From Bacteroidia bacterium (GTDB lineage Bacteria > Bacteroidota > Bacteroidia > M30B66): a DNA stretch of 64,000 nt. A program made the translations under genes and the position numbers. The DNA is taken from the NCBI GenBank assembly GCA_965279035.1, contig OZ257142.1, forward strand, positions 1,696,001 to 1,760,000. The letters run 5' to 3'. Each line of letters starts with the position of its first letter. Position 1 is the stretch's first letter. Shown here piece after piece: positions 9,648 through 62,366 of this stretch. The notes beneath the pieces were generated by a model. The model was not told the DNA's origin. It ran no database searches and was given only the letters and a program-made list of their open reading frames with translations.

Positions 9648-9744
9648 GTGTGATGTTTGTGTTAAAAAATCCTCAGAACGCAAATCTAACGAATTATCAA
9701 TTCGTTAAGCAATAGTTTCCTTAACATGTTAGGAATTACATTGT

Positions 9745-41924: not shown

Positions 41925-42836
41925 ATGCGTCTTCACTACTTATCCCTTTTTCTTCTATCCATTGTATTATTTTCCTGTTCAAGTGGAACTGAATATGATT
42001 TGAAATATCGCCCAAAACCCAATACACGCTATGCCTTCAAGAATGTTACAACCATGAATATGGATCAGAAGATGATGGGGCAGAGCATGAAAATGGATCA
42101 AGAAATTGTGTACGATGGAATTTATGAAGTAGGTTCAATGTCTGCCGATAGTAGCTATGATGTAACATTAACATACACGCACATGAGCACTAAACAAACC
42201 ATGAAAGCTCCGATGGAGAAAGTAACTTCTTTCGATTCGGATTTAAAGGATACAACTCAGGAAGATACAGGCTCTGAATTATATGATCAGATTTTGAATC
42301 AACCGATGAAAATGAAAGTCAGCAAAGACGGAAAAGTACTTTCATTTAGTGGTATGTATGAAGCGATTAAAAAAGCAATGAAATCAACTACAGATTCCAA
42401 ACTTAGTGATGAATTAGTTGGACAATTTACCGATGATAACATGAAAGGAACAATCGAATATATTTTTCGACTTTATCCTGAATCCAAAGTAAATGTGGGA
42501 GCAGATTGGGAAATTGAACAAAAATACGAAGCCGGATATCCCATGTTAATTCAATCGAAATACACGTTTAATGGGGAGAAAAATGGTCGTGCTATGCTAT
42601 CATCCACAGGAACAATCAAAACGAATAAAGGAGGGAAAGGACTTTCGTCAATGATGGCTAAAATGATTGAACTGAGCGGTGATCAAACAGCAACAATTGA
42701 ATTGGATTTGAAAACCGGATTGCCACTTGTAAATACAAGTAATCTCACAATCAAAGGTGAAATGAATATGATGGGAGCTAAATTTCCGATCAGTATGAAA
42801 TCTACCACCAAGGTAACACTTACACCAATCAACTAA
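41925..42836 (+). CDS. Lipoprotein of unknown function (DUF6263-like)
   Basis: Lipobox LFSC; Met-rich beta strands; YPESKVNVGADW and DLKTGLP motifs. Confidence 0.7.
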   Translation: MRLHYLSLFLLSIVLFSCSSGTEYDLKYRPKPNTRYAFKNVTTMNMDQKMMGQSMKMDQEIVYDGIYEVGSMSADSSYDVTLTYTHMSTKQTMKAPMEKVTSFDSDLKDTTQEDTGSELYDQILNQPMKMKVSKDGKVLSFSGMYEAIKKAMKSTTDSKLSDELVGQFTDDNMKGTIEYIFRLYPESKVNVGADWEIEQKYEAGYPMLIQSKYTFNGEKNGRAMLSSTGTIKTNKGGKGLSSMMAKMIELSGDQTATIELDLKTGLPLVNTSNLTIKGEMNMMGAKFPISMKSTTKVTLTPIN

Positions 42837-42838
42837 GA

Positions 42839-44077
42839 TTACTCGAAACGAAGCGCGTCAATAGGGTCGAGCTTGGCTGCTTTTATGGCGGGAATTAAAC
42901 CTGAAAGCAGCCCAACAATAAAGCAGAGAACTGCAGCCAAAATCATCCATGCCCAGGGAATAATAAAACCTTGTTCGAAATACATCGAAACACCATTGCC
43001 CATAAGGATTCCTAAAATAATTCCGAGCGCACCGCCCAATTGACAAATCACAATGGCCTCGATGAGGAATTGATTACGTATGGTGTTGGAAGTGGCGCCA
43101 ATGGCTTTTCGTACACCAATTTCGCGAGTGCGTTCGGTGACTGATACAAGCATAATATTCATCAACCCGATAGCAGCACCCAATAAGGTGATGATCGCAA
43201 TGAGAGTTGCTGCAATGGTAACAAACGACAAATTATCTATTAGCATCATAGAGAGATTGTCGCTTTTGGTGATTTCGAAATTTACAGGATCTTTTGTGCG
43301 TAGCTTGCGGATGATGCGAAAGAAACCGGTTGCTTCAGCCAATGTTGCATCCATCATTTCTGGTGAATTTGCCAACACATTAATTACATACGACATGGAA
43401 TTAGAACCAAAATGTTGACGAATATTAAGCAGTGGCAAGAGCACTATTTTATCACCTCCAAAACCGAAACTTGAGCCTTTCTCTTTAAGTAATCCAATGA
43501 CTTTTACTTTGATTGCTCCTACCGAAATTTCTTTACCAATGGGAGATGTTTTGGGGAATAAATTCTTTTTTAATTCTTGTCCAATGAGTGCGACGTTAGC
43601 ACCAGACTTAATTTCTGTCATTGAGAAATTTCGTCCTTCATCTAATTCATATCCCGCAGTAACTAAATAATTTTCATCACCTCCAAAAACAGTGATGTTC
43701 GGATTTGTTATTAATGAACCTGATTTGATGGTTGAAATTCTAGAACCTACACAACTTACGCCGATACGCGAAGGAAAAGTAAATTCAGATTTAAAACGAT
43801 TAGCTTCTTCGAATGAAATTGTTTTGTAAACAGTTGGACGTTTTCCGCCTTTACCAATTCTCACATTGGAACCTCGATTCCGAATGTTAAAGGTATTGGC
43901 ACCCATCGAAGTAAAATTCGAAGTAATGCTTTCTTTGATGACATCAATTGCCGTAAGAATTCCAACCAAGGCCATGATTCCTAAAGCAATAATCATAATG
44001 GTAAGAAAAGTACGCAGCGATTGCGATTTAATCGAAGTGAGTGCTATGCGTATATTCTCAAAAACCAAAGGATTCAT
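42839..44077 (-). CDS. MacB/FtsX-like ABC transporter permease
   Basis: LRTFLTIMIIALGI, GLMNIMLVSVTERTREIGVRKAIGA, AAKLDPIDALRFE. Start at MNPLVFEN. Confidence 0.92.
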   Translation of the reverse strand: MNPLVFENIRIALTSIKSQSLRTFLTIMIIALGIMALVGILTAIDVIKESITSNFTSMGANTFNIRNRGSNVRIGKGGKRPTVYKTISFEEANRFKSEFTFPSRIGVSCVGSRISTIKSGSLITNPNITVFGGDENYLVTAGYELDEGRNFSMTEIKSGANVALIGQELKKNLFPKTSPIGKEISVGAIKVKVIGLLKEKGSSFGFGGDKIVLLPLLNIRQHFGSNSMSYVINVLANSPEMMDATLAEATGFFRIIRKLRTKDPVNFEITKSDNLSMMLIDNLSFVTIAATLIAIITLLGAAIGLMNIMLVSVTERTREIGVRKAIGATSNTIRNQFLIEAIVICQLGGALGIILGILMGNGVSMYFEQGFIIPWAWMILAAVLCFIVGLLSGLIPAIKAAKLDPIDALRFE

Positions 44078-44205
44078 GTGGTAAAGATAGGGGAGAAGAT
44101 GAATGAACAAAATCCTTTTCCCAAACAGATATTCGAGTTGTTTTGGCTGCTAAAAAATCCTTTGAGTTTATCTCCTCAATTTGTATTTTCGTGAAAATTC
44201 AACAG

Positions 44206-45092: not shown

Positions 45093-48000
45093 TTAACGAT
45101 CTAGGAAATCACGTTTACGTTTCTCAATACCAATCATAAACTGATACGGTGGTTTTCCATTTTCACCATCTACCGATCGTTTCTTCGCATCCAATTCGCG
45201 CACTGCTTTATTAAATGCTTCATCTCCTGCAATCACACTCATTATATTACGTGTGTAGTTGAAGAAAAACCATTTCTGAGATTCCAATTCGATGTAGAAA
45301 TTCAAAATATCTCCACCTCGTTTTTTGACCAATTCGATTTTTCCTTTGATGACTTTATTTACCGGAGTTTTACCAATATTCGAAATTGATAACCATCCTT
45401 CAGAAACATAGGATCGTGTTTCGGTATTCCATTTCATTTCTACATTCGAAAACACAATGGAATGATTGAGTTCATCGGGGAAACGTTTGATAGAACCTGT
45501 TGCTGCAAGATCTTTCAACACCTTATCCGCTTGCTCTTTTCCAATTAATCCAATGAGGGCTTTTTTATAATCACTCGATGAAACATCCGAAGCCTGCAAT
45601 CCACTCGTAGCAGCAATTCCATCCTCAATCATTTTCCATAATTCAGGAGCGAAAAAGAAATCCATTGCAATGCTTGCTTTAAACTTGGTTTCATCGGTTG
45701 CAATACTGTGCGAAGCCTTTCCAAATGTTTGCAACTTGACTTGTCCCAAATCGAGCCCGAAACTCAAATTCCCTTCTCCCGAAACATCACAATTAGCTTG
45801 CTTCATAGCAACGTAATCGTCGGCCAATTCAGGATTTCCAAATTTCTCTTTTGTAGTAATCTGATATTCCTGTGCGGTTTTATTAAATCGTAAATAGCCA
45901 CGTGAATTGAGAATTTCCTGATCGCCAGTCTTCTCTTTTTTCGACATAAACACAGGATACACATGGGTTGAATCTTTCACTAAAACAAGACCAGCCATGA
46001 GTTTCTCATTATCAACGCTACGTGGAAAAGAATCTACTGGAATTAAAATGTCGGCAGGATCGATTGGTGCTTTGAACTTAAGCCAGTTTTTATTTAATGA
46101 AGTACAATTATGTACAATGCGAACACCGCCTTCGAATGTTAGATTTTTTTCGGGCGCAAACAAATTCACTTTGCCTTTGAAATCGAAATTCGAACTCAAT
46201 GTAAATTTCTGTTCTTCTTCAATTTCACCTGTTCCAATAGTATTTCCTAAAGTGTCCTGAGTGATTTTGGTGAATTTAATTACCTGAACTTTCCCTAATT
46301 CATCCTCGAAATCATAACTGCCACTAGCAGTATATTTCCGTTTGGCTGTAATGTCGATGTTCGCATCATATATATCATGATACTTCAAATCGTTGTTAGC
46401 ATTTAAGCGCGACTTGGTTAAGGTGGTCATAACTGCATTTCGCTCAATATTGATTTTTTCATCTGCCGGATAAATAGTTGCATCTGCAACGCGAATCAAT
46501 TTCACCCCATCAGTACGAATGGTTCGATCGGCCATCGCATATTTTGCCTTGGGAGCAACAAAGGTGATTGAATCCTGATCGGGCCTCGTCGAAACGAACC
46601 GCGATCCAATCAAGTCAATCTCGTTCATCGAGGAATTCATGTCCACCTCGTCTTTATCCATATACCAGCGAAGTTCATCCATGTAGGCGATGTATTTATT
46701 CACTGGGAATTCGATGTAGGAATCGGCAGAGTTCGACTTAAATTGACCTTGACGGTTCTTGAAACTCACATCCGCTTTTACGTTATCGGTTTTAATGGCG
46801 ACTTCTTTTGTTCCATCATTTTTCACTTCATCACGCGCAGTGAAAGCAAACGAAGCCGTATCGGATTTGAAATCTTCTTTTCGGAACCTGAATTTCTTCG
46901 AAGCTACTTCGGCACTTGCAAACTCTAAAGTTCCAGCTCCTGTCATTCCGGCTTCACCAATGGCAATTTTCCCACTCAATTTCGATTCACCAGCATACAT
47001 CACGATAGCTTGTGAGGTTTGAGCCACTTCGAATTTGTTAGGTTGATAGGGTTCCCAATGCAATTTCACATCAGCTGCTTCTACATCCGGAAATTCCACA
47101 TTGCCTTGCTGTGCAGCCTGAACGGTTAAGCTTCGACAAAAAGCATTCACCGAATCTGGGAAAAACACAAAGTCGTTCGATTTTGCTGAGGTTGTCAAAT
47201 ACTTGATTTCGCCATCACCACGCAAACCTTTATGACTCATCTGCAATTTGTTAATAAAAACACCTTTGCTCTGATAAATTGGCAATCCTTCTTCTTCGGT
47301 TTCACGTTTAAATCCTAATGAATAATCTTCCTGTAATCGCAGTTCCTCGCGCAAATCAGGGAAAATTCCAGCCGAAACAAAATTGCCTTTAAACACCAAT
47401 CCATCATTCGAGAAATTATCGAGACTATCAACCGTATAGGGATCTAATTGGAAATAAAAATTACTACGATTATATACGTTATTTAATATAGAACCCTTTT
47501 GATAAAAAGCATAGGAATTCTTTACAGAGTTGAAGATTGGGTACTGAGCTAGCGATTTCACACCGCTTTTATTGTATGGATGATCGATGAGCAAATCCCC
47601 AATAATATTTTCAATAACGGTCTTTACTTTAATCAAGGGTTTCTTTCCAAATTCATCCAATTCTCCTCCTTCAACGCGCAATCGCAATGAATCCACATTG
47701 TCGAGATTCAACTTAAATTTATCATAATTGAAATCGAACTTTTTACCAAAGAATTCAAATCGTCCCGCCATGATTCGGCCGGCAAAATCAAAGTCTCGGT
47801 TTTTATGGATCATCAGCTCTTGATTTTTCGGATAGATCACCACATTTTGTGAATCGCTCAAGAAAATTCGTTCAACACCTTTCATCCGCAAATCCCAATT
47901 AAGCAAACTTAATTCTGCATTGTTTTCAGATCCACCCACATTGGAAAAAAACTGAATCACATCATAATCGGCTCTACCATTCAGCGCCAGCAAGTATTTT

Positions 48001-49553
48001 CTCAAACGCGGCTTGAATGTCACCATTTGAGTTTCTTCGTTATAAATAACAAATCCTTTTACCGAAAGTCTTCTTAAAATATGACGAATTTGAGTAGGCT
48101 CAATGCGGTAGAAACGGGCAACTTCATCCGAATGAAATTCCTCTCGTCCACCATTAGCATCCGATAATTTTCGCAATACAACAAGCGGACTTTCTTCGTC
48201 CATCCCTTTGATTTCGATAAAGCGCTCCTCTCTGAAATAATCCGATGATTCGAAAAGAGCTTTACTTTCTACTGCACCTGGAATCGCTCTAAAATGTAAT
48301 GTTGGTTCATCCACCTTCCATTCGAGCACTTCAAAATCCATATCCAGTTGATGATAGCTGTTTGAATAAGGCGTTTTAGAAGTCCCTTCATTGTTACGAA
48401 GGAGATAAAACTGACGTTTGTCGTCGAGATAACGAAATACTAAACCGGGATGAACAATAGAATCTTCATCAATCCTAATATTGACAGAAGCTTGAGATGA
48501 ATTGAGGCTATTATTTTCGATGAGGAAGGCCGACGATTGAACTTTGATAAAGGGTTTTCCTTCGCGTTTGAAATAGAATGTAGCTGGATTTTCAAGATTT
48601 CCCGATCCAAGCAATTGAGCACCTTGGACCGTTAATCCACCTTTATAATCAATGTTCTTGAAGATTCCTGGAATACTGAACTCAGTATTGTAAGAACTAA
48701 AGCGCGGATAGGTTGCATCGCGTTTGCCGGGATTGTCGGTGAGCTTTTCGCTTACTTGACCAAGGATAGGTTCTTTGAAATATTTAGGAAAAGTAAAGGT
48801 GGCGCTATCTCCCGTGAATTTGGTTGTTTTAACAATGAGTTCATACTTGGAAAGTTTAGCATTGGCTTCATCTTCTTTCAAACCAGCACGTTCCCAAAGA
48901 AGCTTCCCACCTTTTCCAATAAAACGGTATTCGGTAGGATAAAATATTCCCGAAGTTGTATAAATAATGGTGCTATCGCCACGAGTAACACCTCTAAGAT
49001 TGGTTGTTGGAATGGTGATGTTGGCCAAACTATCAAATCCAAATTTGACGTCACTTGTACCGATATACCAAGCAACTGCTTCGGATTTGTAAAAGGCATT
49101 GTAGCGAATTAAATTCTCGGACGTTATAAGGTATTGATCGAATTTTCCGGCGGTGATTTTGGTGATGAGTTGATTTACTTGCGTGTTCCAATCATTATAA
49201 TAATCAACAGATTTAGTGCTTTCCCCATAGGCAATGATGCATTGAAAATAATCTCTAAAATTCGGAATAGCATTCATCCTTTTTTTCATCATCGCATTGG
49301 AAGTTGTGATGATGGATTGTTTCACTCCAAGGCTAAATTTCGTTTCCCACAATGGCTCTAGTTGATCGATGAGCAACTTGGCTTGTTGTTTATCGGCAGC
49401 AGATATATAGGTCTCAATGTCTTTCAGAAATTGAACCGGTTCATTCGAAAATGACTTGATTGGTTGCGCAAGTCCGGTTTCTGTAATGAGCAAAATGAGA
49501 ATTGCCGGAAAGAATAGTAGGCGCTTCAGTAGGGATGAATACTTGCTTAGCAT
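45093..49553 (-). CDS. Large (1486 aa) exported hypothetical protein, predicted mostly beta
   Basis: Long uninterrupted ORF, Sec signal ending GLA-Q, alternating hydrophobic strand pattern. No catalytic motif, T9SS CTD or terminal barrel Phe recognised. Confidence 0.8.
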   Translation of the reverse strand: MLSKYSSLLKRLLFFPAILILLITETGLAQPIKSFSNEPVQFLKDIETYISAADKQQAKLLIDQLEPLWETKFSLGVKQSIITTSNAMMKKRMNAIPNFRDYFQCIIAYGESTKSVDYYNDWNTQVNQLITKITAGKFDQYLITSENLIRYNAFYKSEAVAWYIGTSDVKFGFDSLANITIPTTNLRGVTRGDSTIIYTTSGIFYPTEYRFIGKGGKLLWERAGLKEDEANAKLSKYELIVKTTKFTGDSATFTFPKYFKEPILGQVSEKLTDNPGKRDATYPRFSSYNTEFSIPGIFKNIDYKGGLTVQGAQLLGSGNLENPATFYFKREGKPFIKVQSSAFLIENNSLNSSQASVNIRIDEDSIVHPGLVFRYLDDKRQFYLLRNNEGTSKTPYSNSYHQLDMDFEVLEWKVDEPTLHFRAIPGAVESKALFESSDYFREERFIEIKGMDEESPLVVLRKLSDANGGREEFHSDEVARFYRIEPTQIRHILRRLSVKGFVIYNEETQMVTFKPRLRKYLLALNGRADYDVIQFFSNVGGSENNAELSLLNWDLRMKGVERIFLSDSQNVVIYPKNQELMIHKNRDFDFAGRIMAGRFEFFGKKFDFNYDKFKLNLDNVDSLRLRVEGGELDEFGKKPLIKVKTVIENIIGDLLIDHPYNKSGVKSLAQYPIFNSVKNSYAFYQKGSILNNVYNRSNFYFQLDPYTVDSLDNFSNDGLVFKGNFVSAGIFPDLREELRLQEDYSLGFKRETEEEGLPIYQSKGVFINKLQMSHKGLRGDGEIKYLTTSAKSNDFVFFPDSVNAFCRSLTVQAAQQGNVEFPDVEAADVKLHWEPYQPNKFEVAQTSQAIVMYAGESKLSGKIAIGEAGMTGAGTLEFASAEVASKKFRFRKEDFKSDTASFAFTARDEVKNDGTKEVAIKTDNVKADVSFKNRQGQFKSNSADSYIEFPVNKYIAYMDELRWYMDKDEVDMNSSMNEIDLIGSRFVSTRPDQDSITFVAPKAKYAMADRTIRTDGVKLIRVADATIYPADEKINIERNAVMTTLTKSRLNANNDLKYHDIYDANIDITAKRKYTASGSYDFEDELGKVQVIKFTKITQDTLGNTIGTGEIEEEQKFTLSSNFDFKGKVNLFAPEKNLTFEGGVRIVHNCTSLNKNWLKFKAPIDPADILIPVDSFPRSVDNEKLMAGLVLVKDSTHVYPVFMSKKEKTGDQEILNSRGYLRFNKTAQEYQITTKEKFGNPELADDYVAMKQANCDVSGEGNLSFGLDLGQVKLQTFGKASHSIATDETKFKASIAMDFFFAPELWKMIEDGIAATSGLQASDVSSSDYKKALIGLIGKEQADKVLKDLAATGSIKRFPDELNHSIVFSNVEMKWNTETRSYVSEGWLSISNIGKTPVNKVIKGKIELVKKRGGDILNFYIELESQKWFFFNYTRNIMSVIAGDEAFNKAVRELDAKKRSVDGENGKPPYQFMIGIEKRKRDFLDR

Positions 49554-49715
49554 GTTTGCAAATTACCTATTTCGAATGCAGATGTTGAGGGATTTGAAAA
49601 TTGATTTTTGCACAAGTTTTAAGCAATCATGCGGTTCTTAAAGAAAATTATCCAGTTTTGATATTTCTTAATTTTTCATGTAGGTTTGTGCAGAAGGTTA
49701 ACCATTATGCATTCA

Positions 49716-50618
49716 ATGAAATTCTATACAAAATCAAGTCTGAGTGCCGTTCTATTTTTAGCAGGAGGACTCCTACTGAGTAGCTGCGGCGGAAGTGACA
49801 AAAAAACCGAAGGCTCATCATCCGACACATTGGCTGTAGCTGACTCAACGCCTAAAAACGAGGATTATTTTCAGGTTCCATTACCGGCTGAACTTTTTCG
49901 TTCACTTCAGCAAAACGGAGTTAAGTCGCGTCCGAACTTGCTAAATCCGGTTGAAAATATTTCTTCTTATACTTCATCTACATACAAAGCCCTCAATTTT
50001 GGGGTGTATAGTTCTGATTTATTTTTCTGCAGCACATTCGATTTAAAGTCGGATGTATTGAAATATTTCGAGAATTTGAAAAAACTTTCCGACGAATTAG
50101 GAATCAGTTCGGTTGTGAATGATGCTACAATGAAGCGCATCGAGAAAAATTTAGGTAACAAAGATTCTTTGAGCAAAATTACCGATCAAGTATTTTTTGA
50201 GGCATCAACAAACCTTGAGAAGAATGGGCAAGGAGCAACATTGGCTTTACTCATTGCTGGAGGATTAACAGAAAGTATCTATTTGAGTACCTGTGTTGCT
50301 GATCAATACAAAGAAGGAAGTGTTGTATCAAGTATTATTGCTGATCAAAAATTCCCATTGGTGAATTTGTACGATTACATGAATAAATATCCCGAAGATG
50401 CTCGAATTGCTGAAGCGCGTAAATTGATTGATCCCTTAAAAGCAGCTTATGATGCATTAAAGGAAGCAGCTCATACTCCTAGTAAATCGAAAGACGGTAA
50501 GAAAGTAATTGGTGGTGAAACTCATTTAGTGATTACTGCCGACGATTATACTAAAATTCGTGAAGCTGCAGCAACTGTTAGAGCTTCTATTTCCAAAACA
50601 AGTCCAGCTAAAAACTAA
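49716..50618 (+). CDS. Helical lipoprotein of unknown function
   Basis: MKFYTK signal, lipobox LSSC, PLPAE, KALNFGVYSSDL, GGLTESIYL, IADQK. Confidence 0.75.
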   Translation: MKFYTKSSLSAVLFLAGGLLLSSCGGSDKKTEGSSSDTLAVADSTPKNEDYFQVPLPAELFRSLQQNGVKSRPNLLNPVENISSYTSSTYKALNFGVYSSDLFFCSTFDLKSDVLKYFENLKKLSDELGISSVVNDATMKRIEKNLGNKDSLSKITDQVFFEASTNLEKNGQGATLALLIAGGLTESIYLSTCVADQYKEGSVVSSIIADQKFPLVNLYDYMNKYPEDARIAEARKLIDPLKAAYDALKEAAHTPSKSKDGKKVIGGETHLVITADDYTKIREAAATVRASISKTSPAKN

Positions 50619-50641
50619 GATTCATACTAAAAAGGCACACA

Positions 50642-51145
50642 ATGCGTATACTTTTTTCTGCTTTCATTTTTCTTATTCTGGTTTGTCCACTCAGTGCTCA
50701 ACAGCTTCAGAAATCAGATAATATTCCGGCTTCAGAACTCTGCTCCGATTATCATAAAAAGAATCTTTCATTCGAAAAGAAAGACATTAACTTTCGATAT
50801 AATTCTCAATCGCGAAGTGCTTTATTTCGTCCGGGACAATCATCGAAACTTTCATTTACAGCTTTCAAAGGCAATGAATATCGCATTACCTGCGGCGCCG
50901 AAAATTCGGTGTTGAACGGTGGTACAGTTTCGTTCAAAATATTAGATGCTAAAACAAAGAATGTCTTGTTTGATAGTGAAGCTGAAGGAGCTACTTTGTT
51001 CGAATTTATATGTGATAATTCATTGAATTTGATTCTCGAAATAGCCTTGCCAGAAGCAACATCTACCTCTTCTACTAAGAAAGTTGTTTATGGCTGCGTT
51101 GGTTTTCTCATGGAGAGTCGACCAGCATTGCAAACTGGTTTCTAA
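50642..51145 (+). CDS. Exported hypothetical beta-sandwich protein
   Basis: Signal peptide ending LSA-Q; YNSQSRSA, YRITCG, YGCVG; several Cys. Confidence 0.7.
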   Translation: MRILFSAFIFLILVCPLSAQQLQKSDNIPASELCSDYHKKNLSFEKKDINFRYNSQSRSALFRPGQSSKLSFTAFKGNEYRITCGAENSVLNGGTVSFKILDAKTKNVLFDSEAEGATLFEFICDNSLNLILEIALPEATSTSSTKKVVYGCVGFLMESRPALQTGF

Positions 51146-51167
51146 ACACGCTTGATTCTGCTATAGG

Positions 51168-51713
51168 ATGTTCGATATATACGATTTCTACGAAAAAATG
51201 GAGGATGGCAAAATCATGCTGTCTTTTAAAGGAGAAATCACATCCGAACTTCTTACTTCGATACTTCATATTATGGAGTCGAAACTCGATAATATTGGAG
51301 AAGAGCCCCGACTGCGCAAGAAAGTATATAATGTATTAGTTGAATGCTTGCAAAACTTGTATCATCATAACGATGGTTTGACCGACGATCCGAAAGCGAA
51401 TCAACGATCAGCATTATTTCTAATTGGCCGTAGTGATGATAGTACTTACAAAATCATTACAGGAAATTATATACTGAATTCTAATGTTGAGGCATTCAAA
51501 GCACGTATCGATGTAATCAACGGTTTGAACAAGAACGAACTAAAAGATTTATACATCAAAACATTAAATAACGAAGAGTTTTCTGGAAAAGGCGGTGGTG
51601 GTTTAGGCTTAATTGATATTGCTCGTAAATCGGGACAAAAGATCGATTATTCGCATACACCGATAGATGATACCTATTCCTTTTTTAGTTTACTTATCAA
51701 GGTAACTCATTAA
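51168..51713 (+). CDS. siaB: SiaB-family (GHKL, anti-sigma-like) protein kinase
   Basis: LSFKG, N box VECLQNLYHH, TGN, G box KGGGGLGLIDIARKSG. Confidence 0.85.
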   Translation: MFDIYDFYEKMEDGKIMLSFKGEITSELLTSILHIMESKLDNIGEEPRLRKKVYNVLVECLQNLYHHNDGLTDDPKANQRSALFLIGRSDDSTYKIITGNYILNSNVEAFKARIDVINGLNKNELKDLYIKTLNNEEFSGKGGGGLGLIDIARKSGQKIDYSHTPIDDTYSFFSLLIKVTH

Positions 51714-51717
51714 TACA

Positions 51718-52095
51718 ATGGAATCAATTGCTATTGAAATAACACCCAAAACACCTTTAGTGAAACTCACTTCGAAGGATGGAATAATGGAATTCCGTGG
51801 GCGTTCGATCCCTGAAAATTCAATTGAGTTTTATACACCCGTTTTTAATTGGATTGATAAATATAGCCTTCAACCCAAAGAGAAAACAACCGTTCAAATT
51901 CAACTTGAATATTTTAACACAAGTTCTTCAAAGTGCTTACTTGATATCTTTAAAAAACTTCAAAGCTTGCATTTATCAGGTAAATCGGAAGTTACCGTTA
52001 ATTGGTATTACGAAGAAGATGATGAAGACATGCTTGAGGCGGGCGAAGATTACCAAGCCATCATTAAGGTTCCCTTTGTAATGATTAAAATTTAA
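51718..52095 (+). CDS. siaC: SiaC-family (DUF1987) phospho-acceptor protein
   Basis: TPxV, GRSIPEN..EFY, LEYFNTSSSK (Thr68), WYYEEDDEDMLEAGEDY. Confidence 0.9.
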   Translation: MESIAIEITPKTPLVKLTSKDGIMEFRGRSIPENSIEFYTPVFNWIDKYSLQPKEKTTVQIQLEYFNTSSSKCLLDIFKKLQSLHLSGKSEVTVNWYYEEDDEDMLEAGEDYQAIIKVPFVMIKI

Positions 52096-55000
52096 GCTCC
52101 TTTGGGGCTTTTTTCTTTTTTAATCCATTGGATTTTCCCCGGTAATTTCAACAGCCATTTGAATCCTTCCACATATAAAAGAATACTCAGGATTCCGGTC
52201 ATTAGCCAAATCACCAGCATATTGGCCCAACGCACTTCCATGATCATTGATCCAAATCGCTTATAGGGCGAATAAAATCCTCCAGAAGCAAATCCACCCG
52301 GCGCCGGTACATGAAATGCCGGTTCAAAATTTCGAATCAACTCTTCGCGCTCATTCAATTTTATCTTGGTGAATTCATCTTGATGCAAGACCATTTGACT
52401 CAATTGTTCATTGGTCGATTGTGCTACTAAGTCAGAATAGCTCGCTCCAAAACTGGAAATGATTTTATCTTTTTCAGCTCGTGCTCGAATCTCTCGTTTG
52501 TTGCATACCTGTTTGCATTGAGCTAAATAACTCGAAAGCTGAAGATCTATTTCTGAAGAATACGTATTTGAATTTATTTTTTCGGGTGAATCAAATTGCT
52601 TGAAATCGCCCCGTTTATTCATACGTATGAGTTCGTTCGAAAGAGAATGAGTTATATTTTCCTTTTGAATTGGATACTTGCATTCATTCAATTTTACTCG
52701 CAACTCATCCATTTTGGGAATCCAATAATTCACACAATAATTCGATTCTGAAATCTGAATGTCTTGGTCGAAAACGGGTTTTTCAGCTTCATTATTCATG
52801 AAACGATTAACCGCCATTGCTTCAAAAGCCCAGCGTGAAGCCATCAAATTGGCTGAAAATGGAACGCGATCATCTTCCGGACGAAGTGTACTATTCAAAT
52901 GATCAAATCGTACGAGCACGCCGCTTAGCAAGAGTTGAGGTATGATTAAAATCGGAATGATGATGTAAATAGTTATAGCAGAATTGAAGGTTGCCGAAAT
53001 GTTCAATCCCAACAAATTCGCAAAACAGCTAACAGAAAACAGCAGTAAAAAATCATCCAACATCAATCCATGTAAGCCCATCATTGTATGTCCAACCGTT
53101 ACAAAACAAGCTGTTTGTATTGCCGAAATTAGAAACAACAAGGCGATTTTGGATAGCAAATAACTGCCTTTGCTCAAGTGAAGAAACTTTTCTCTTCGAA
53201 GTATTTTTCGATCACGAATGATTTCTTCGGCACTTACTGTTAAGCCGAAAAACAAGGAAGCAATCACACAAATGAGCAAATACGCAGGTAAGTTGAGGTT
53301 GTGAAAAAGCGTGTAATGATCATCTTGTGTGTAACGTAATGCATATCCCATCAACAAAGCCAATAAGGGTGCTTCAAGCAAATTGATAGCTAAATATTGC
53401 CGATTACTCAGCTTAGATAAAAGATCTCGTATAAAGAAAACCTTGAATTGTCCAGGATAACCTGGTTTCTTAAATCCAGAATGGGGTAGTTCGCCTGTTG
53501 GAATTTCGTTTTCGGATGCAGGTGGTTGACTACGTTTGAAAAAGATATTCCATTCTTTTGGAGAAATTCTTCGGTTCGGTGTAGGCTTCCCATGTTCGTC
53601 AACAATGCGCGATTCGAGTATATCGAACAATTGTTCAGGATTCACATTCCCACATTCGATGCATTCACTTTCACTTGCATTGGCATGATCGACAATGGTT
53701 TTAAAATACACCACCGATTCAACGGGATTGCCGTAATACACTGGATATCCGCCAACATCCATCATCAACAAGCGATCGAACATTTTAAAGATGGCCGATG
53801 AAGGTTGATGGATAACCACAAAAATGAGCTTGCCTTTCAATGCCAATTCCTTGAGCAAGTCCATAATATTTTCCGAATCGCGTGAACTCAATCCTGATGT
53901 TGGTTCATCTACAAACAACACTGCTGGTTCGCGAATAAGTTCAAGTGCAATATTGAGCCGCTTGCGTTGTCCTCCGCTGATCGTTTTTTGCAGTGGATTC
54001 CCCACCTTCAGATCACGGATTTCCAATAATCCCAATTCATCCAATACATGATGAACTCTGCGTAAAAGTTCGGTATCTGAAGTGCCGGCAAAACACAATT
54101 TCGCGTTGTACCAAAGATTTTGAAATACACTCAATTCCTCTATGAGCAAATCATCCTGAGAAATGTAACCGATTAGTCCTTCGGTGCTTGTTTCGGCTGC
54201 ATTTAAATCAACACCATTGATGAGAATTTTCCCAGAACTGGGCTTTTCATTCCCGTTGAGTAAATTGAGCAAAGTAGATTTTCCCGCTCCGCTCGAGCCC
54301 ATAATTCCTATGAGATTTCCCGAATGCTCTGTAAAGTTGAATTTGTGTAAACCGCGCTTTCCGTTTTTAAAACGGTATTCAATGTTTTTTGCTTGAAATA
54401 CGATTTTAGTTTCGGCATTTTGTTTCAAAAAACAACCAAGCACATCGGAATAATACACCGGATTCATCCGACTTCCACGCAGAACAGCGCCTTGTGGAAA
54501 CACATACACACGTTCTGTTTGAAGAAGCTGTCCATTGAGATTGATTTCTCCATGTTGAAGAATTCTCAAATAATAGCTTCCGGCACTTTCGAGATATACA
54601 ATGAAAATATCGATCTCTAAGCCTTCAACAAATAAGTGCTTTAATTGACCAAAATCAGATTCTTTATTTCCATTGAGAAGCAAGCAGGATGAATCATTTA
54701 ATGCAAGTGGATTGGAACCTGCGAACTGCAAACACACAGCTGTTTCTACTTCAGGAATATTGAAAATAGAAGCAACAGTTTGAGCAAAATCCAGGTTTTG
54801 AGAATCAATTTCGCCTCCGGCAGATAGGAACTCAACCAATCGAAGAAAGACAAAACACTTTTGTTGATGCGTGAGTTCTTCATTAATCTGTGTGCAAATG
54901 AAAAGCACTTTCACCGAGGATGCCGAACGTCTTTTTCTTGCGCGTGCTTCGTCGCTTGTTCGATGAAGTTCTTGAACTAAGGCATCAAACTCACTTAAAT

Positions 55001-55136
55001 ATTCATCAACCTGATCGCTACCTAATTGCCTACGAAGAAAACTCTCTACAACCGAACGCTCTCGTCCTGCATTCTCGCCTGGACGGGCTACCAATGCAAA
55101 GAGTTGTAATAATGCTTTGAGGATTTTTCGATTCAT
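52092..55136 (-). CDS. ABCG-like transporter (NBD before TMD) with N-terminal TerB-like extension
   Basis: About 240-aa N-terminal extension; Walker A GSSGAGKST, ISGGQRKRLNIALEL, VDEPTSGLS, IHQPS; ABC2-type TMs, SRWAFEA, large extracytoplasmic loop. Confidence 0.85.
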   Translation of the reverse strand: MNRKILKALLQLFALVARPGENAGRERSVVESFLRRQLGSDQVDEYLSEFDALVQELHRTSDEARARKRRSASSVKVLFICTQINEELTHQQKCFVFLRLVEFLSAGGEIDSQNLDFAQTVASIFNIPEVETAVCLQFAGSNPLALNDSSCLLLNGNKESDFGQLKHLFVEGLEIDIFIVYLESAGSYYLRILQHGEINLNGQLLQTERVYVFPQGAVLRGSRMNPVYYSDVLGCFLKQNAETKIVFQAKNIEYRFKNGKRGLHKFNFTEHSGNLIGIMGSSGAGKSTLLNLLNGNEKPSSGKILINGVDLNAAETSTEGLIGYISQDDLLIEELSVFQNLWYNAKLCFAGTSDTELLRRVHHVLDELGLLEIRDLKVGNPLQKTISGGQRKRLNIALELIREPAVLFVDEPTSGLSSRDSENIMDLLKELALKGKLIFVVIHQPSSAIFKMFDRLLMMDVGGYPVYYGNPVESVVYFKTIVDHANASESECIECGNVNPEQLFDILESRIVDEHGKPTPNRRISPKEWNIFFKRSQPPASENEIPTGELPHSGFKKPGYPGQFKVFFIRDLLSKLSNRQYLAINLLEAPLLALLMGYALRYTQDDHYTLFHNLNLPAYLLICVIASLFFGLTVSAEEIIRDRKILRREKFLHLSKGSYLLSKIALLFLISAIQTACFVTVGHTMMGLHGLMLDDFLLLFSVSCFANLLGLNISATFNSAITIYIIIPILIIPQLLLSGVLVRFDHLNSTLRPEDDRVPFSANLMASRWAFEAMAVNRFMNNEAEKPVFDQDIQISESNYCVNYWIPKMDELRVKLNECKYPIQKENITHSLSNELIRMNKRGDFKQFDSPEKINSNTYSSEIDLQLSSYLAQCKQVCNKREIRARAEKDKIISSFGASYSDLVAQSTNEQLSQMVLHQDEFTKIKLNEREELIRNFEPAFHVPAPGGFASGGFYSPYKRFGSMIMEVRWANMLVIWLMTGILSILLYVEGFKWLLKLPGKIQWIKKEKSPKGA

Positions 55137-55177: not shown

Positions 55178-55750
55178 TCATTTCTTCTTTTCGTTATACC
55201 CAATATCTTTTTTGAGTAATTCTAAAATCGATTGTACCGCTGGACAAATAAAACTGTTTTCATACGTCAAATCGAGTAATTGATGAAAGCGTTTCCGATC
55301 GGTATGCGGATAGGTGCGACAAGCCGTTGGACGATCTTCATACACATCGCAAGTATTGTCTTCGGCGAGGAATGGACAGGGTGAAGATTTCAATACATAA
55401 TCTTTGTCTTCATCAATACGTAGATATTTATCTACAAACACCACTGGTTTTATGCGCAAACGTTTCGAAAGGTGCTCGATGTCTTTCTGATTGAAAATGG
55501 GACTAGTCGTTCGACAACAATTTCCACACGTTAAGCAATCGGTATTTTCAAACACAGCATCATGAATTTCGCGTACGCGGACATCCAGATTTGACGGGTG
55601 ATTGCGTTTCAATTGATCGAGAAAACGGCGATTGGATTTCTGTAAGACTTTGCCAGCTTCGAGAATTGCTTCGGGTTGGTATTTTAAGTTTGTTGACAAT
55701 TTGGGAGTTTTTAACTTGTCTGTCGAGCACTGAGGGTTTATTTTTGCCAC
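55178..55750 (-). CDS. YkgJ-family cysteine-cluster (Zn/Fe chelating) protein; start uncertain
   Basis: CLTCGNCC, PCPFL, CDVYEDRPTACRTYP, CP. Confidence 0.85.
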   Translation of the reverse strand: MAKINPQCSTDKLKTPKLSTNLKYQPEAILEAGKVLQKSNRRFLDQLKRNHPSNLDVRVREIHDAVFENTDCLTCGNCCRTTSPIFNQKDIEHLSKRLRIKPVVFVDKYLRIDEDKDYVLKSSPCPFLAEDNTCDVYEDRPTACRTYPHTDRKRFHQLLDLTYENSFICPAVQSILELLKKDIGYNEKKK

Positions 55751-55789: not shown

Positions 55790-56734
55790 ATGATCTCTAT
55801 ACGTTCTATTGTTCTTTTTCTGTTGACCATTCCTTTGGCCGCTTCGATGCAAGCCAAGCAACATATAAAAGACAGCATGCAGGTTGTTGTTCCGCCTGAT
55901 ACAATTCCCCCCAACATTCATGAAATAGAAGAATTCTCAGAAGAGGAAGATTCAACTGTTACCGAAGAAGGAGAAGCGTTTGAAGGTATTTGGGATGAAG
56001 ATGCTTGTGTGATTCTGAATTGTGATTTGTACAACGCTGTTTGGGATACAACACGCATCAATCCATACGGAATCAACCTAAAGGAAAAGAAAGATTCTAC
56101 CTATCTCACACTTTTTCATGATGTATCTTGTGATTATGCGCATCCGACTTGTGGAGAGATCACCTCAGAATTTGGCTTCCGCCGAACGCGTTACCATTAT
56201 GGAATCGACATCAACCTCGAAACAGGTGATGAGGTTTTATCCGTTTTCGAAGGAACCGTTCGTGTTGCTCGTTACAGTCCAACGTATGGCTATTACGTAA
56301 TTATTCGACATTTGAATGGACTAGAAACCTTGTATGCACATCTTTCTCAAATCAATGTTTCTTCTGGACATTATGTTCAAGCAGGCGATAAAGTGGGTTT
56401 GGGTGGAAATACAGGACATTCGCGTGGAAGTCACTTGCATTTTGAAGTTCGTTTCTTAGGACAGCAGATCAATCCGCGGGACGTTATTTCGTTTGAGAAT
56501 TATACCTGCAATAGCAAAGAACTTTGCATCAGTCCGGCGAGTTTTGATTATTTACGCAAGGTTGAAAAACACAAAGCACAGGTTGCAGCACGTCGTTATT
56601 ATAAAATTCGCAAAGGAGATTCATTGGGTCGCATTGCCCGAAAAAATCATACAACGGTTGCTAAATTGTGTAAGTTGAATAAGATGAGTAAACGCACGAA
56701 ACTCAAGCCGGGTAGAAGATTAAGGGTGGCTTAG
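55790..56734 (+). CDS. M23 peptidase with C-terminal LysM domain
   Basis: HYGID, YAHL, HLHFE; YKIRKGDSLGRIA LysM. Confidence 0.92.
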   Translation: MISIRSIVLFLLTIPLAASMQAKQHIKDSMQVVVPPDTIPPNIHEIEEFSEEEDSTVTEEGEAFEGIWDEDACVILNCDLYNAVWDTTRINPYGINLKEKKDSTYLTLFHDVSCDYAHPTCGEITSEFGFRRTRYHYGIDINLETGDEVLSVFEGTVRVARYSPTYGYYVIIRHLNGLETLYAHLSQINVSSGHYVQAGDKVGLGGNTGHSRGSHLHFEVRFLGQQINPRDVISFENYTCNSKELCISPASFDYLRKVEKHKAQVAARRYYKIRKGDSLGRIARKNHTTVAKLCKLNKMSKRTKLKPGRRLRVA

Positions 56735-60172: not shown

Positions 60173-60281
60173 AGATTATCAGCTTTCAATTCACATACCT
60201 TCAAGAAATCAAGTCGCAATGGCAGAGAATTGAATGTGAACAATGTATCTTGCTATGCCCAAATCCCAATCATCAATGAGT

Positions 60282-62366
60282 ATGATGTTCAAGTACCCAA
60301 TTGCACTATTCTTTTCTGTTTTCGTTTTAATGTTGATTCCACAGTCTTTCTATGCGCAATGTGCTATTGGCGAAAGTTCAGTTAGCCTTGTTGTAACTAC
60401 CGATGATTATGGATACGAAGGGTATTGGGAATTGACCGCAGAACCCAATCCATGCGGAACACAAACCATTGCATTTGGTGGAAACGTCAATGTAGGTTGC
60501 ATTTCTGGATCACAAAATCAAGATCCATCAGGATATGGAAACAATTTAGTTATCAATGAAGGACCTTGGTGTTTGACCAATAATGCCTATTACACCATTC
60601 ATTATCGCGACGATTGGGGTGATGGTGGTTTTCATTTTCGAATTTTAATCAATGGACTTATCGCACATGAATTTTACAATGCAGGTTCTGGTGTTGATTT
60701 TACATTTCAAGTGCTTGATCCACCATTGTACGATTTAGCGTGTTATACCCATGTTAATTCTACCCAAGTTCAAGGCAGATATGTGCAACAACAAGGAAAT
60801 CCGCTTGAAGTTATCCTCTATAATTTTGGTGCTCAAACCGTAACAAGTGCCGAAATATCCTATTCGGTGAATGGTGATACACCTGTTATTGGAACTCTCA
60901 ATGGATTATCTATCGTACCATATACTTCAATAGTTGTTCAACATCCTGTATTATGGACTCCAAGTTCCGATGGATCATATACCATTGAATTTTCAGTAAA
61001 TTCTATTAATGGAAATCCGGATGAAGTTCCACTCAATAATTCCGAATCGGCAGTTTACCTTGTTGGACCAGGTCGGCCTTATCTTTTAGATGATTATATA
61101 AGCGGATTGATTGTTCCAATGAACATTGCTACTTCGGCAAATAGCTTGAGTTCGCCAATCGATTTAGACTTTCATCCAACTTTAACGAAGAAACAGTTGT
61201 GGATTATTAATAAAGGCACTGAAAGCAGCGGCGGATCTACTGTAACAATTGATAATACAGGTGAGGCAAATCAAATTTCAGAATTTTTGCAAGATGGAAA
61301 TGCCTGGCATTTTATGTCTTTACCTAGCGGAATAGCTTTTAGTGATAATGGAAATTTTGCGACTTCACCGGGTGTATTCGATGCCAATCATACAGGAACA
61401 GCTGTAGCGTTTACCGGACCAACCTTGTGGTCGAGCGATCCAGCAATTTATGCCCAACCCAGTGGTGGAAATGGATCACATCTCGATATGTTGCACGAAA
61501 GTCCATACAGCCAAGGAATTGCTTGGGAAAAGGACAATGTATTTTGGTTATTCGATGGATACAACAACGATATCGTTCGTTATGATTTTGTGAATGATCA
61601 CAATCCTGGCAATAGTGATCATTCCGACGGAATTGTTCATCGTTACAGCGATGTTGCAGTTTTGAAAGACCTAAATGGAACAATCAGTCACCTCGAATTA
61701 GATGAAGCGAAGGATTGGTTGTATGTAGTTGATAATGGAAATCAGCGGATTTTTCGAATGAATATTCACACCGGAACACCGTCTGCAACACCACCTTCTT
61801 ATGGTCCACATGAAGGTATGGCAGAATACCTGACGATGACCGGTTATACTTGGGAAAATGTTGTTTCTACAGGATTACTTGATCCAGCCGGAATTGCAAT
61901 TCAAGGAAATCGGATGTTAGTGAGCGATCATCAATCAAATGAAATTATCCTGTATGACATTAGCAGTATGCCCGCCACTGAACTTCGTCGAATAAACACA
62001 TCGGCATTGGGAATTATGGGAATTGCAATTGGTCCTGAAGGGAAGATTTATTATGTAGATAATGCAGGAAATAAAGTAGTTCGATTAGATCCAGAACAAA
62101 TCCCTCTCAATACAAGCGAAATTACTTCCAAAGCATACAGTTTATTTCCAAATCCATCCCAAGGACAATTAGGTATAGCCTCAGAAATTGAACAAATTAA
62201 ACTTCACATTTCGGTTTTCAATTCCATTGGTCAAGCCCTTATTTCTTACCAAACAGAATCAGGAAAAATGACCAATCTAAATATACCTGCTGGTGTTTAT
62301 TTTATTGTGATAAAAGATGAAAACGGGAAATTCTTAGCTAAGAAACCTTGGATTATTTCTAAATGA
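60282..62366 (+). CDS. T9SS type A CTD protein with Ig-like domain and beta-propeller (start approximate)
   Basis: Signal peptide ending FYA-Q; DDWGDG, Ig/CARDB-like N.G...DEVPLNN, propeller blades; CTD LFPNPS...GVYFIVI...KPWIISK. Confidence 0.82.
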   Translation: MMFKYPIALFFSVFVLMLIPQSFYAQCAIGESSVSLVVTTDDYGYEGYWELTAEPNPCGTQTIAFGGNVNVGCISGSQNQDPSGYGNNLVINEGPWCLTNNAYYTIHYRDDWGDGGFHFRILINGLIAHEFYNAGSGVDFTFQVLDPPLYDLACYTHVNSTQVQGRYVQQQGNPLEVILYNFGAQTVTSAEISYSVNGDTPVIGTLNGLSIVPYTSIVVQHPVLWTPSSDGSYTIEFSVNSINGNPDEVPLNNSESAVYLVGPGRPYLLDDYISGLIVPMNIATSANSLSSPIDLDFHPTLTKKQLWIINKGTESSGGSTVTIDNTGEANQISEFLQDGNAWHFMSLPSGIAFSDNGNFATSPGVFDANHTGTAVAFTGPTLWSSDPAIYAQPSGGNGSHLDMLHESPYSQGIAWEKDNVFWLFDGYNNDIVRYDFVNDHNPGNSDHSDGIVHRYSDVAVLKDLNGTISHLELDEAKDWLYVVDNGNQRIFRMNIHTGTPSATPPSYGPHEGMAEYLTMTGYTWENVVSTGLLDPAGIAIQGNRMLVSDHQSNEIILYDISSMPATELRRINTSALGIMGIAIGPEGKIYYVDNAGNKVVRLDPEQIPLNTSEITSKAYSLFPNPSQGQLGIASEIEQIKLHISVFNSIGQALISYQTESGKMTNLNIPAGVYFIVIKDENGKFLAKKPWIISK

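Follow-up and report, generated by a model that had tools for sequence, protein, structure and literature searches.

A SiaB/SiaC switch gene pair linked to an ABCG-like exporter in a probable rearranged Bacteroidota envelope gene module

In the SiaABCD partner switch of Pseudomonas aeruginosa, the PP2C protein SiaA and the kinase SiaB are combined with the DUF1987 phosphoprotein SiaC and the diguanylate cyclase SiaD (PMC8457831; bioRxiv 10.1101/674879; PMC7278518), and DUF1987 proteins in general are proposed to modulate adjacent proteins (PMC8457831). The STAS-type switches HsbA-HsbD and BgrV-BgrR, cited in the same text, control enzymes (PMC8457831). Control of an ABC exporter by Ser/Thr phosphorylation is described for Mycobacterium tuberculosis Rv1747, where two N-terminal FHA domains mediate this control and the Ser/Thr kinase PknF acts as a positive regulator (PMC3138270). 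Here we describe a Bacteroidota locus in which genes of the SiaB and SiaC families lie beside an ABC exporter gene. In the literature searched we found neither a SiaB/SiaC pair wired to an ABC exporter nor a published study of this ABC family with its lipoprotein and small secreted partners.

The locus lies in a 64,000-nt stretch of DNA (hereinafter designated the window). All six genes grouped in an initial annotation are present as ORFs where they had been placed: a 1486-aa exported protein (45093-49553, minus strand; hereinafter designated the giant protein), a 310-aa lipoprotein with the lipobox LLLSSC (49686-50618, plus strand; hereinafter designated LIPO), a 167-aa small secreted protein (50642-51145, plus strand; hereinafter designated p167), siaB, encoding a SiaB-family Ser/Thr protein kinase (DUF6272; 51168-51713, plus strand), siaC, encoding a SiaC-family (DUF1987) phosphoprotein (51718-52095, plus strand), and a 1014-aa ABCG-like half transporter (52092-55136, minus strand; hereinafter designated ABC). 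LIPO, p167, siaB and siaC are co-oriented with short gaps of 23, 22 and 4 bp, as had been noted, and the cytoplasmic switch is therefore probably co-transcribed with the periplasmic partners of the pump. The overlap of the siaC and ABC stop codons in TTAA (52092-52095) was likewise read directly in the sequence, with the siaC TAA at 52093-52095 (plus strand) and the ABC stop at 52092-52094 (minus strand); convergent siaC and ABC genes in relatives are mostly separated by about 100 bp. Right after siaC, within the last ABC codons, lies a terminator-like hairpin with a T-run (52094-52110, plus strand), which is not significant on its own because the consensus scan found 5 terminator-like sites in the region against 5.0 expected. 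On the other side of the transporter gene, 41 bp upstream of it and on the same strand, is a gene for a 190-aa CxxCxxCC protein (PF03692, E 4.2e-14; 55178-55750), probably co-transcribed with ABC in this window; it has no tblastn match in the 80 related loci and is thus not conserved with ABC.

SiaB scores above its family cut-off (NF038262 SiaB_fam_kinase, 152.9 bits against 85) and matches PF19788 with an E value of 8.4e-40 (136 bits, cut-off 26.6), and SiaC exceeds its Pfam cut-off (PF09345, 144.8 bits against 24.5, E 1.2e-42). The window thus resembles SiaABCD in having adjacent genes for a SiaB-family kinase and a SiaC-family protein with a conserved Thr68; SiaC retains the YFNTSS motif pointed out earlier, and all 34 ABC-linked SiaC proteins that were aligned have T68. 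Unlike the Pseudomonas proteins, both fall below the corresponding equivalog cut-offs (NF038264, 93.3 bits against 225, for SiaB; NF038265, 95.8 bits against 150, for SiaC), and the candidate partner encoded next to them is an ABC transporter. By analogy, the SiaABCD logic presumably applies here, with the phosphorylation state of SiaC setting the binding of a neighbour-encoded partner. In HsbA-HsbD and BgrV-BgrR, too, the phosphorylation state of a small protein sets effector binding, but the effector there is a cyclase, whereas the candidate effector of the window is a transporter.

The transporter shares with eukaryotic and bacterial ABCG/ABC2 (type V) half transporters a nucleotide-binding domain (NBD; ABC_tran PF00005, residues 263-414, 113.3 bits) that precedes the transmembrane domain (TMD; ABC2_membrane PF01061, residues 563-748, 69.1 bits) in one chain, six hydropathy-predicted TM helices (582-600, 616-634, 664-682, 691-715, 723-741 and 971-989, with a Lys-rich tail behind the last one) and a large TM5-TM6 loop. 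Its best NCBIfam model is TIGR00955 (White/ABCG, the pigment precursor permease subfamily), with 246.5 bits, under the cut-off of 736.35. It differs from these transporters in its additional two-domain N-terminal head, in its loop of about 230 aa (residues 742-970; 52227-52913, minus strand) and in its pairing with LIPO and a small secreted protein. The loop, which has no Pfam match, should be periplasmic, to judge from the established ABCG layout and an NBD on the cytoplasmic side, and LIPO and the small secreted protein probably dock on it. Full-length homologues in this family number more than 8000, have lengths of about 1000-1040 aa and belong to Bacteroidota wherever they are named.

The first part of the head (residues 1-141; 54714-55136, minus strand) is probably a TerB-like helical domain, to judge from its AF2 model (pLDDT 86.1) and structure matches. 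VIA-align superimposes it on 2h5n (Z 8.6, 114 aligned, rmsd 3.8) and on 2ou3, a COG3793 tellurite-resistance protein (Z 8.0), both Z values lying in the helical-bundle noise range. Pfam TerB (PF05099) scores under its cut-off on the window ABC (E 0.0028, 18.4 bits against 24.4) and is a precomputed match on many ABC homologues. The second part (residues 146-235; 54432-54701, minus strand) is an FHA-fold beta sandwich of degenerate sequence. In a structure search independent of Foldseek, the 50 matches listed are mostly FHA-domain entries (Z 5.4-7.1); the match to 3gqs has a Z of 7.1 (rmsd 2.3, 72 aligned), and residues 145-235 match FHA-2 of Rv1747 (6cah) with a Z of 5.9. The best Foldseek matches are also mostly FHA entries, at E 4.5e-3 and weaker. 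The fold is assigned because the match lists are so consistently dominated by FHA entries, the single Z values, all below 8, being modest; the domain has no Pfam FHA match and no PDB sequence match. Conserved positions in it are K166, H167, G194, N201, G202, G216, R220, P226, Y228, Y229 and D231. Of the phosphothreonine-binding residues of FHA domains (GR, SxxH and NG), an alignment of 42 sequences shows conservation of NG, as N201-G202, but of neither GR nor SxxH, so that canonical phosphothreonine binding is not evident.

Like Rv1747, the window ABC is an NBD-then-TMD exporter with an N-terminal FHA-fold region and an adjoining Ser/Thr kinase gene. Unlike Rv1747, it has just one FHA-fold domain, which is degenerate and preceded by a TerB-like domain, and no sequence similarity between the two heads was detected. 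The kinases differ as well: by analogy with SiaABCD, the SiaB-type (GHKL-like) kinase of the window would target a separate small protein, whereas a Hanks kinase acts on the transporter in the case of Rv1747.

LIPO is predicted to be all-helical (AF2 model, pLDDT 83.9). It has no Pfam or NCBIfam match and no specific match in the PDB (Foldseek E >= 0.3; best VIA Z 7.0, helical-bundle noise), and appears in the Atlas as a Bacteroidota 'Lipoprotein family protein'. This uncharacterised Bacteroidota family is the tightest partner of ABC, which it adjoins in 53 of the 80 related loci (tblastn) and in 12 of 13 ABC copies fetched from a sample of 301 Bacteroidota genomes drawn regardless of this locus. 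In 41 of the 80 loci, ORF clustering places a further small gene, of a family hereinafter designated f2, between the two, giving the conserved core LIPO>f2>ABC. The f2 proteins are about 141 aa long, and p167, which BLAST alone does not match in related loci, appears from its sequence to be a divergent member (hhalign against a 41-sequence f2 alignment: probability 96.7%, E 4.4e-10, 108 columns); its residues 1-19 form a signal-like hydrophobic segment.

Scored by tblastn at E <= 1e-5, siaC adjoins ABC in 36 of the 80 related loci and siaB in 30. The neighbourhood comparison across Bacteroidota that had been proposed earlier thus reveals a recurrent siaC-ABC linkage, and it does so in four gene orders: the majority order LIPO>f2>ABC><siaC<siaB, PP2C>siaB>siaC>ABC>LIPO (L074, L078, L112, L114, L118 and L120), siaC>LIPO>ABC (L012, L016 and L111) and, in the window, LIPO>f2>siaB>siaC><ABC. 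The last equals an inversion of the block of ABC, siaC and siaB in the common layout. Because the pairing of SiaB/SiaC with the pump recurs in several orders across Bacteroidota, the pump is the likeliest target of the switch. We lean, with modest confidence, towards the reading that the window holds a rearranged form of a conserved Bacteroidota envelope module (ABC, LIPO and f2) coupled to SiaB/SiaC, which would control the pump.

Adjacency of siaC tracks the ABC phylogeny, requiring 7 changes on the ABC tree (37 rows with and 25 without adjacency) against a shuffled mean of 19.6, and about 15 Bacteroidales-like loci have wide housekeeping flanks in common (RlmL, CtpA, GuaA and tRNase Z); inherited gene order therefore accounts for much of the recurrence. 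Moreover, in nine of ten tested genomes whose ABC has no adjacent siaC, we found a close siaB-siaC pair unlinked from ABC, with a SiaC 57-66% identical to that of the window. Seven of these SiaC proteins (L101, L102, L105-L109) nest among ABC-linked ones on the tree, L103 and L104 being the two further pairs, and the linkage is therefore dispensable. These observations, together with the 9 of 16 sampled ABC copies that have no siaC alongside, would also be expected if siaB-siaC had landed beside an ABC cassette in an ancestor and been inherited there without direct control, the target of SiaC lying elsewhere. We regard this account as rather unlikely, since the linkage survives four gene orders and varied flanks, and since the distribution of siaC copies and the SiaC tree, described below, also argue against it.

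In the 301-genome sample, 9 genomes carry ABC, with 16 copies in all, and 19 carry SiaC. These two families co-occur, as the initial annotation would have it: SiaC is present in 8 of the 9 ABC genomes versus 11 of the 292 others (Fisher p = 4e-10, uncorrected for relatedness). Seven of these 16 copies, spread over 6 of the 9 genomes, have siaC next to them. The two siaC copies of G247 each lie beside a different ABC copy, and in G001, G111 and G115, where no GGDEF protein was found, the single siaC is ABC-adjacent; both patterns speak against adjacency inherited without direct control. The head is kept in the 9 sampled ABC copies without nearby siaC, and in G175 it is present with no SiaC found in the genome; the head must therefore have a SiaC-independent role.

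All six-frame ORFs of >=60 aa in the window were scanned with local HMMs for PP2C and GGDEF, which had been trained on members found in related loci, and neither gave a match at E <= 10, consistent with the initial annotation, which had seen no SiaA-like phosphatase or GGDEF protein. Among the 80 loci the PP2C HMM detects 10 PP2C ORFs, which come from 7 loci and include some of the ORFs that it was built on. The description of the switch as one without SiaA holds for the window locus itself but not for its kin, as four of the five tree-nearest ABCs have a SpoIIE-type PP2C gene beside the cluster, and relatives with no PP2C at the locus carry 2-7 SpoIIE-type PP2C genes elsewhere in the genome. 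The genome search for GGDEF (PF00990) envisaged earlier was run on relatives and found none in five of five genomes with ABC-linked SiaC, while 8 of 14 control genomes were positive.

Other SiaC proteins of the phylum have other partners. Canonical PP2C>siaB>siaC>GGDEF operons occur in L081, L085 and L086, and a HisKA-HATPase kinase gene adjoins siaC in L082-L084 and L087. On the SiaC tree, the GGDEF- and histidine kinase-linked copies form one clade (node value 95, 12 rows) with no ABC-linked member, so that the SiaC of canonical SiaABCD-like operons is of a different subfamily from that of the window, and the co-directional ABC-linked types form clades of their own (node values 99, 6 rows, and 100, 3 rows). 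SiaC subfamilies thus follow the ABC arrangement type, which is a further point against mere inherited synteny.

A complex prediction of SiaC with ABC residues 1-545, a calculation suggested by the initial annotation, scored 0.59, 0.60 and 0.69 (median 0.60) against 0.00 for the best of three controls, with a partner pLDDT of at least 88 and at least 95% of contacts shared between runs. Of the 80 solved complexes used for calibration, 58 passed the mark, against 2 of 110 mismatched pairs; both of these mismatches, but only 7 of the 80 solved complexes, had scores no higher than 0.60. The result weakly supports a SiaC-ABC contact, and counts to the same extent against inheritance without direct control. 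The pump is the best candidate output because the linkage persists in four orders, SiaC subfamilies follow the ABC type, GGDEF was found in none of the five genomes and the complex is weakly supported by prediction. The earlier proposal that the switch has a different output here therefore stands in so far as no cyclase partner is found and ABC, LIPO and the small exported protein make the best candidate; its inclusion of the giant protein does not.

For the direction of control, the SiaC-ABC contact and the phosphatase, we infer the following scheme. SiaB would phosphorylate SiaC on Thr68, and a SpoIIE-type PP2C encoded elsewhere in the genome would dephosphorylate it. One phosphorylation state of SiaC, the unphosphorylated one by analogy with SiaC-SiaD, would bind the cytoplasmic part of ABC (head and/or NBD) and alter its ATPase or transport activity, while on the outer side LIPO and f2 would work together with the periplasmic loop. 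The cargo might be hydrophobic or lipid, a guess from the ABCG-like fold. The more specific proposal, that the DUF1987/SiaC partner switch directly gates the exporter via its TerB-FHA head and that LIPO and f2 are new periplasmic accessories, is put forward tentatively, at somewhat below an even chance.

Flux-sensing ABC transporters report transport load to their kinases, and the wiring could in principle run in reverse, the TerB/FHA head serving as a sensor or scaffold that reports transport load to SiaB/SiaC, with the output elsewhere. Such wiring would accommodate a head that is present with or without adjacent siaC, as well as a window locus that itself encodes a kinase but neither a phosphatase nor a sensor domain, and the linkage and complex evidence give no direction. 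We nevertheless consider it quite improbable: the ABC-linked loci conserve no further output gene next to the pair, it is SiaC that binds the output in the characterised system (PMC8457831), and a large PP2C is encoded directly upstream of siaB in co-directional loci. The large PP2Cs scanned (L081 and L108) carry Reg_prop/Y_Y_Y sensor domains, so that a large PP2C already supplies an input.

The giant protein, described as beta-rich, which has a signal-like hydrophobic N-terminal segment, no Pfam or NCBIfam match and only hypothetical Bacteroidota clusters as Atlas entries, had been assigned with the other five genes to one trans-envelope lipid export pathway under SiaB/SiaC. Its gene and the LIPO operon point away from each other, with 132 bp between them for the TTG start, or 153 or 162 bp for an in-frame ATG at codon 8 or 11, which agrees with the gap of about 160 bp given before. 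A homologue is found in 17 of the 301 sampled genomes, including all 9 with ABC (Fisher p = 5e-13, kinship ignored), and lies within 10 kb of ABC in two of the 80 loci (L032 and L051), as a six-gene pathway would have it. However, it is non-adjacent in the other 78 loci and in 13 of 13 fetched copies; in the 9 ABC genomes it is located on a contig other than that of ABC or hundreds of kb from it; 8 sampled genomes have the giant protein with no ABC head found, the positive controls having matched; and the genes that separate siaB from the giant gene in L032 are unrelated to LIPO or f2. The giant protein is a neighbour in the window and not part of the conserved module, and the six-gene pathway appears highly improbable.

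If control of the pump by SiaB/SiaC holds true, it would be the first partner-switch control of an ABC transporter, and would add to Rv1747/PknF a second, mechanistically distinct way for Ser/Thr phosphorylation to regulate such an exporter. It would also provide a first handle on an ABC family that has thousands of database members yet occurs in 9 of 301 sampled Bacteroidota genomes. SiaB/SiaC would then be a portable switch whose outputs in Bacteroidota fall into at least three classes, namely cyclase, histidine kinase and transporter, and, if SiaC binds and gates the pump, the partner of such a switch would be readable from the neighbouring gene.

ORF listing and translation of the window bear out the six genes and the layout described in the initial annotation. 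A 310-aa lipoprotein (LIPO), a 167-aa exported protein (p167), siaB and siaC follow one another in a single direction with gaps of 23, 22 and 4 bp, and the stop codon of siaC shares TTAA (52092-52095) with that of the converging 1014-aa ABCG-like half transporter (hereinafter ABC), the five genes spanning 49686-55136; the sixth gene encodes a 1486-aa exported protein (hereinafter the giant). The kinase SiaB matches DUF6272 (E 8.4e-40) and exceeds the NCBI SiaB-family cut-off (152.9 bits vs 85), and the phosphoprotein SiaC matches PF09345 (144.8 bits vs a cut-off of 24.5), while both fall under the Pseudomonas equivalog cut-offs. ABC carries an ABC_tran domain (residues 263-414) followed by ABC2_membrane (563-748), and its top NCBIfam model is the White/ABCG subfamily, with a score under the cut-off. 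Scanning the region for terminators and promoters gave counts no higher than the shuffled expectation. Elsewhere in the window, a 707-aa protein (60243-62366, +) has the C-terminal sorting domain of T9SS (Por_Secre_tail), consistent with an origin in Bacteroidota. A DUF6263 gene (41925-42836, +) and the gene for a MacB_PCD/FtsX-type ABC permease (42839-44110, -) are convergent, and another permease of that family is encoded at 37635-38879.

We searched 80 related loci taken from species-representative genomes with the window proteins (tblastn, E <= 1e-5). ABC matched in 80/80 loci, LIPO in 53, siaC in 36, siaB in 30, the giant in two and p167 in none. The ABC family consists of 1000-1040-aa proteins with >8000 matches, from Bacteroidota wherever the source is named. 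ORF clustering of the 80 loci gives a usual order of LIPO > f2 > ABC, f2 being a family of small secreted proteins (~141 aa) present in 41 loci. p167 has no BLAST match among the relatives and is placed in the f2 family by profile comparison only (hhalign 96.7%, E 4.4e-10); the window therefore has all core parts. Judged by gene order, its arrangement LIPO>f2>siaB>siaC><ABC corresponds to an inversion of the block ABC-siaC-siaB within the common layout LIPO>f2>ABC><siaC<siaB. In L032, the genes separating siaB from the giant were suspected of being another LIPO/f2-like pair, a reading rejected on profile and sequence comparison (hhalign probability 0.16%, BLAST E 7).

The predicted structure of LIPO is all-helical. 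Its top Foldseek matches reach only E 0.3-0.4 (EfeM/EfeO/Algp7, probability <= 0.28), and a VIA search (top Z 7.0, membrane helical bundles) returned no specific structural relative. Relaxed Pfam searches (E <= 10) with the giant, LIPO, p167 and the periplasmic loop of ABC yielded chance-level rows only, and in the Atlas the giant and LIPO fall in unnamed or 'lipoprotein family' Bacteroidota clusters. In Bacteroidales-like loci (L043, L045, L054, L075 and others; ~8400-9950) LIPO and f2 are absent upstream of ABC, and their place is taken by small genes for an Hpt-domain and a STAS-domain protein, with a PepSY_TM-like protein next in some of these loci. The Hpt>STAS pair occurs in 13/80 loci (ORF clusters f10/f5), its STAS protein being a second partner-switch-type protein close to the pump.

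The giant, which the initial annotation had proposed as part of the export pathway, does not follow this core. It has no family assignment in Pfam, NCBIfam or the Atlas, and lies within the ABC locus in only the two loci where it matched and beside none of 13 fetched sample copies. Homologues are present in all nine ABC-bearing genomes of a 301-genome Bacteroidota sample, on other contigs or far off, and in eight further sampled genomes without ABC. The possibility that a two-candidate scoring limit had hidden an ABC in those eight was rejected with a profile of the N-terminal cytoplasmic region of ABC (hereinafter the head), which found none while matching its positive controls. The phyletic overlap of giant and ABC, uncorrected for kinship, may come from shared lineage; on genomic context the giant is not shown to belong to the module, and we leave it out.

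A Peptidase_M23 and LysM protein (55790-56734, +) is divergent from the CxxCxxCC-ABC pair in the window. Homologues lie within 10 kb of ABC in 5/80 loci (tblastn; L018, L021, L027, L052 and L056), in the last two immediately upstream of LIPO. An M23/LysM protein near an ABC transporter recalls FtsEX-EnvC; by this count the linkage is weak.

The association of siaC with ABC could reflect inherited gene order or a functional tie. On a 77-row ABC tree, in which siaC is adjacent in 37 rows, not adjacent in 25 and unscored in 15 loci that are too short, adjacency changes seven times, vs a mean of 19.6 and a minimum of 14 with shuffled labels; ~15 Bacteroidales-like loci also have housekeeping flanks in common (RlmL, a CtpA-type S41 peptidase, GuaA, tRNase Z and S1). 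The order thus appears largely inherited. siaC nevertheless lies beside ABC in four distinct gene orders: convergent in the majority of loci, PP2C>siaB>siaC>ABC>LIPO in L074, L078, L112, L114, L118 and L120, siaC>LIPO>ABC in L012, L016 and L111, and the inverted block of the window. Among the 301 genomes, SiaC is found in 19 and ABC in nine (16 copies), the head profile adding no ABC genome missed by the first scoring. SiaC is present in 8/9 ABC genomes vs 11/292 others (Fisher p = 4e-10, with no correction for relatedness) and adjoins 7/16 ABC copies in six genomes; one genome (G247) has two siaC copies, each by a different ABC copy and in two different orientations. All ten tested genomes without siaC next to ABC have SiaC genes elsewhere. 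In 14 regions from these genomes, siaC lies by a second ABC paralogue in three (L111, L112 and L114), and nine (L101-L109) hold siaB-siaC away from any ABC, with SiaC 57-66% identical to that of the window.

On a short and weakly resolved SiaC tree (79 rows), GGDEF- and histidine-kinase-linked SiaC group in a 12-row clade (95*) from which ABC-linked copies are absent, and each of the two co-directional ABC-linked types is recovered as a starred clade. Seven ABC-unlinked siaBC pairs fall among the convergent ABC-linked ones, a placement suggestive of secondary separation from ABC. That the linkage has repeatedly been kept despite rearrangement and paralogy, and that SiaC subfamilies match in this way, speaks for a functional tie between siaBC and ABC that would not strictly need adjacency.

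Four of the ABC-unlinked pairs (L101, L104, L105 and L108) have an uncharacterised ~300-aa lipoprotein, h4, directly upstream of siaB, preceded in L108 by a Reg_prop/Y_Y_Y-SpoIIE phosphatase; h4 was rejected as a LIPO relative (hhalign 5.9%, over the signal-peptide region only). Two loci (L040, 18375-18773, -; L049, 16182-16565, -) also contain a further, highly divergent SiaC paralogue (30-33% identity to the window's SiaC), isolated between the genes for the S41 peptidase and GuaA.

An AF2 model of ABC residues 1-250 (pLDDT 86.1) divides the head into a helical part (1-141) with TerB-like resemblance (2h5n, Z 8.6; 2ou3, Z 8.0) and a beta sandwich (146-235) for which FHA domains, including Rv1747 FHA-2, make up most of the 50 listed rows (Z 5.4-7.1). 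The FHA-fold domain has no Pfam match and no PDB sequence match, the head profile finds no PDB sequence at E <= 10, and a conserved GR or SxxH motif is absent from the alignment. By its sequence the domain is degenerate, and canonical phosphothreonine binding by it is unproven. Gly194 of this domain is present in 98% of 42 sequences; the window's ABC, which sits on a long branch (0.97), has Gln (codon 54555-54557, -). Hydropathy places five TM helices at 582-741, a ~230-aa loop, a sixth helix at 971-989 and a Lys-rich tail. A cytoplasmic NBD with this TM layout would put the loop in the periplasm, where it could contact LIPO and secreted f2.

Complex prediction for ABC residues 1-545 and SiaC, from alignments of 42 and 34 rows respectively, scored 0.59, 0.60 and 0.69 (median 0.60), against 0.00 for the best of three controls, with partner pLDDT of at least 88 and at least 95% of contacts agreeing between runs. 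The calibration mark was reached by 58/80 solved complexes and 2/110 mismatched pairs; only seven of those 80 solved complexes, and both mismatches that passed, score 0.60 or less. The SiaC-ABC contact raised in the initial annotation thus gains weak support from the model, with no interface reported, and, with gene context as the prior, the scores modestly raise its odds.

The initial annotation also described the switch as lacking SiaA and SiaD. Local HMMs for PP2C and GGDEF match none of the window's six-frame ORFs, but the missing SiaA is a local matter. The window's ABC belongs to a starred six-row clade with L012, L016, L030, L033 and L053, and a SpoIIE-type PP2C lies beside the cluster in four of these five. 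Two genomes (G001 and G111) whose ABC-linked locus is without PP2C carry five such genes elsewhere. The absence of SiaA beside SiaB/SiaC thus characterises the window locus, and a phosphatase is predicted elsewhere in its genome. With the giant set aside, the ABC/LIPO/f2 module is, on genomic evidence, the best candidate for the alternative output of the window's SiaB/SiaC pair.

Other SiaB/SiaC pairs in the 301-genome sample have two further gene contexts. Three loci (L081, L085 and L086; ~5600-11000 per locus) hold a canonical SiaABCD-like operon of SpoIIE phosphatase (Reg_prop/Y_Y_Y-SpoIIE, ~1186 aa), siaB, siaC and a GGDEF protein. In L082-L084 and L087 (~9200-11400), the gene immediately after siaB>siaC encodes a HisKA-HATPase kinase of 329-354 aa that lacks a sensor domain, an order in which SiaC may gate a histidine kinase too. 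No GGDEF domain was found in the five genomes with ABC-linked SiaC, while control genomes matched. DUF1987 proteins have been suggested to modulate adjacent proteins, and the portion of that article consulted here does not mention ABC transporters (PMC8457831). Our search of the main text of published articles found no SiaC-ABC link. The SiaB/SiaC switch is, as gene order indicates, modular in Bacteroidota, and the window's pair is probably a partner switch that acts on a transporter.
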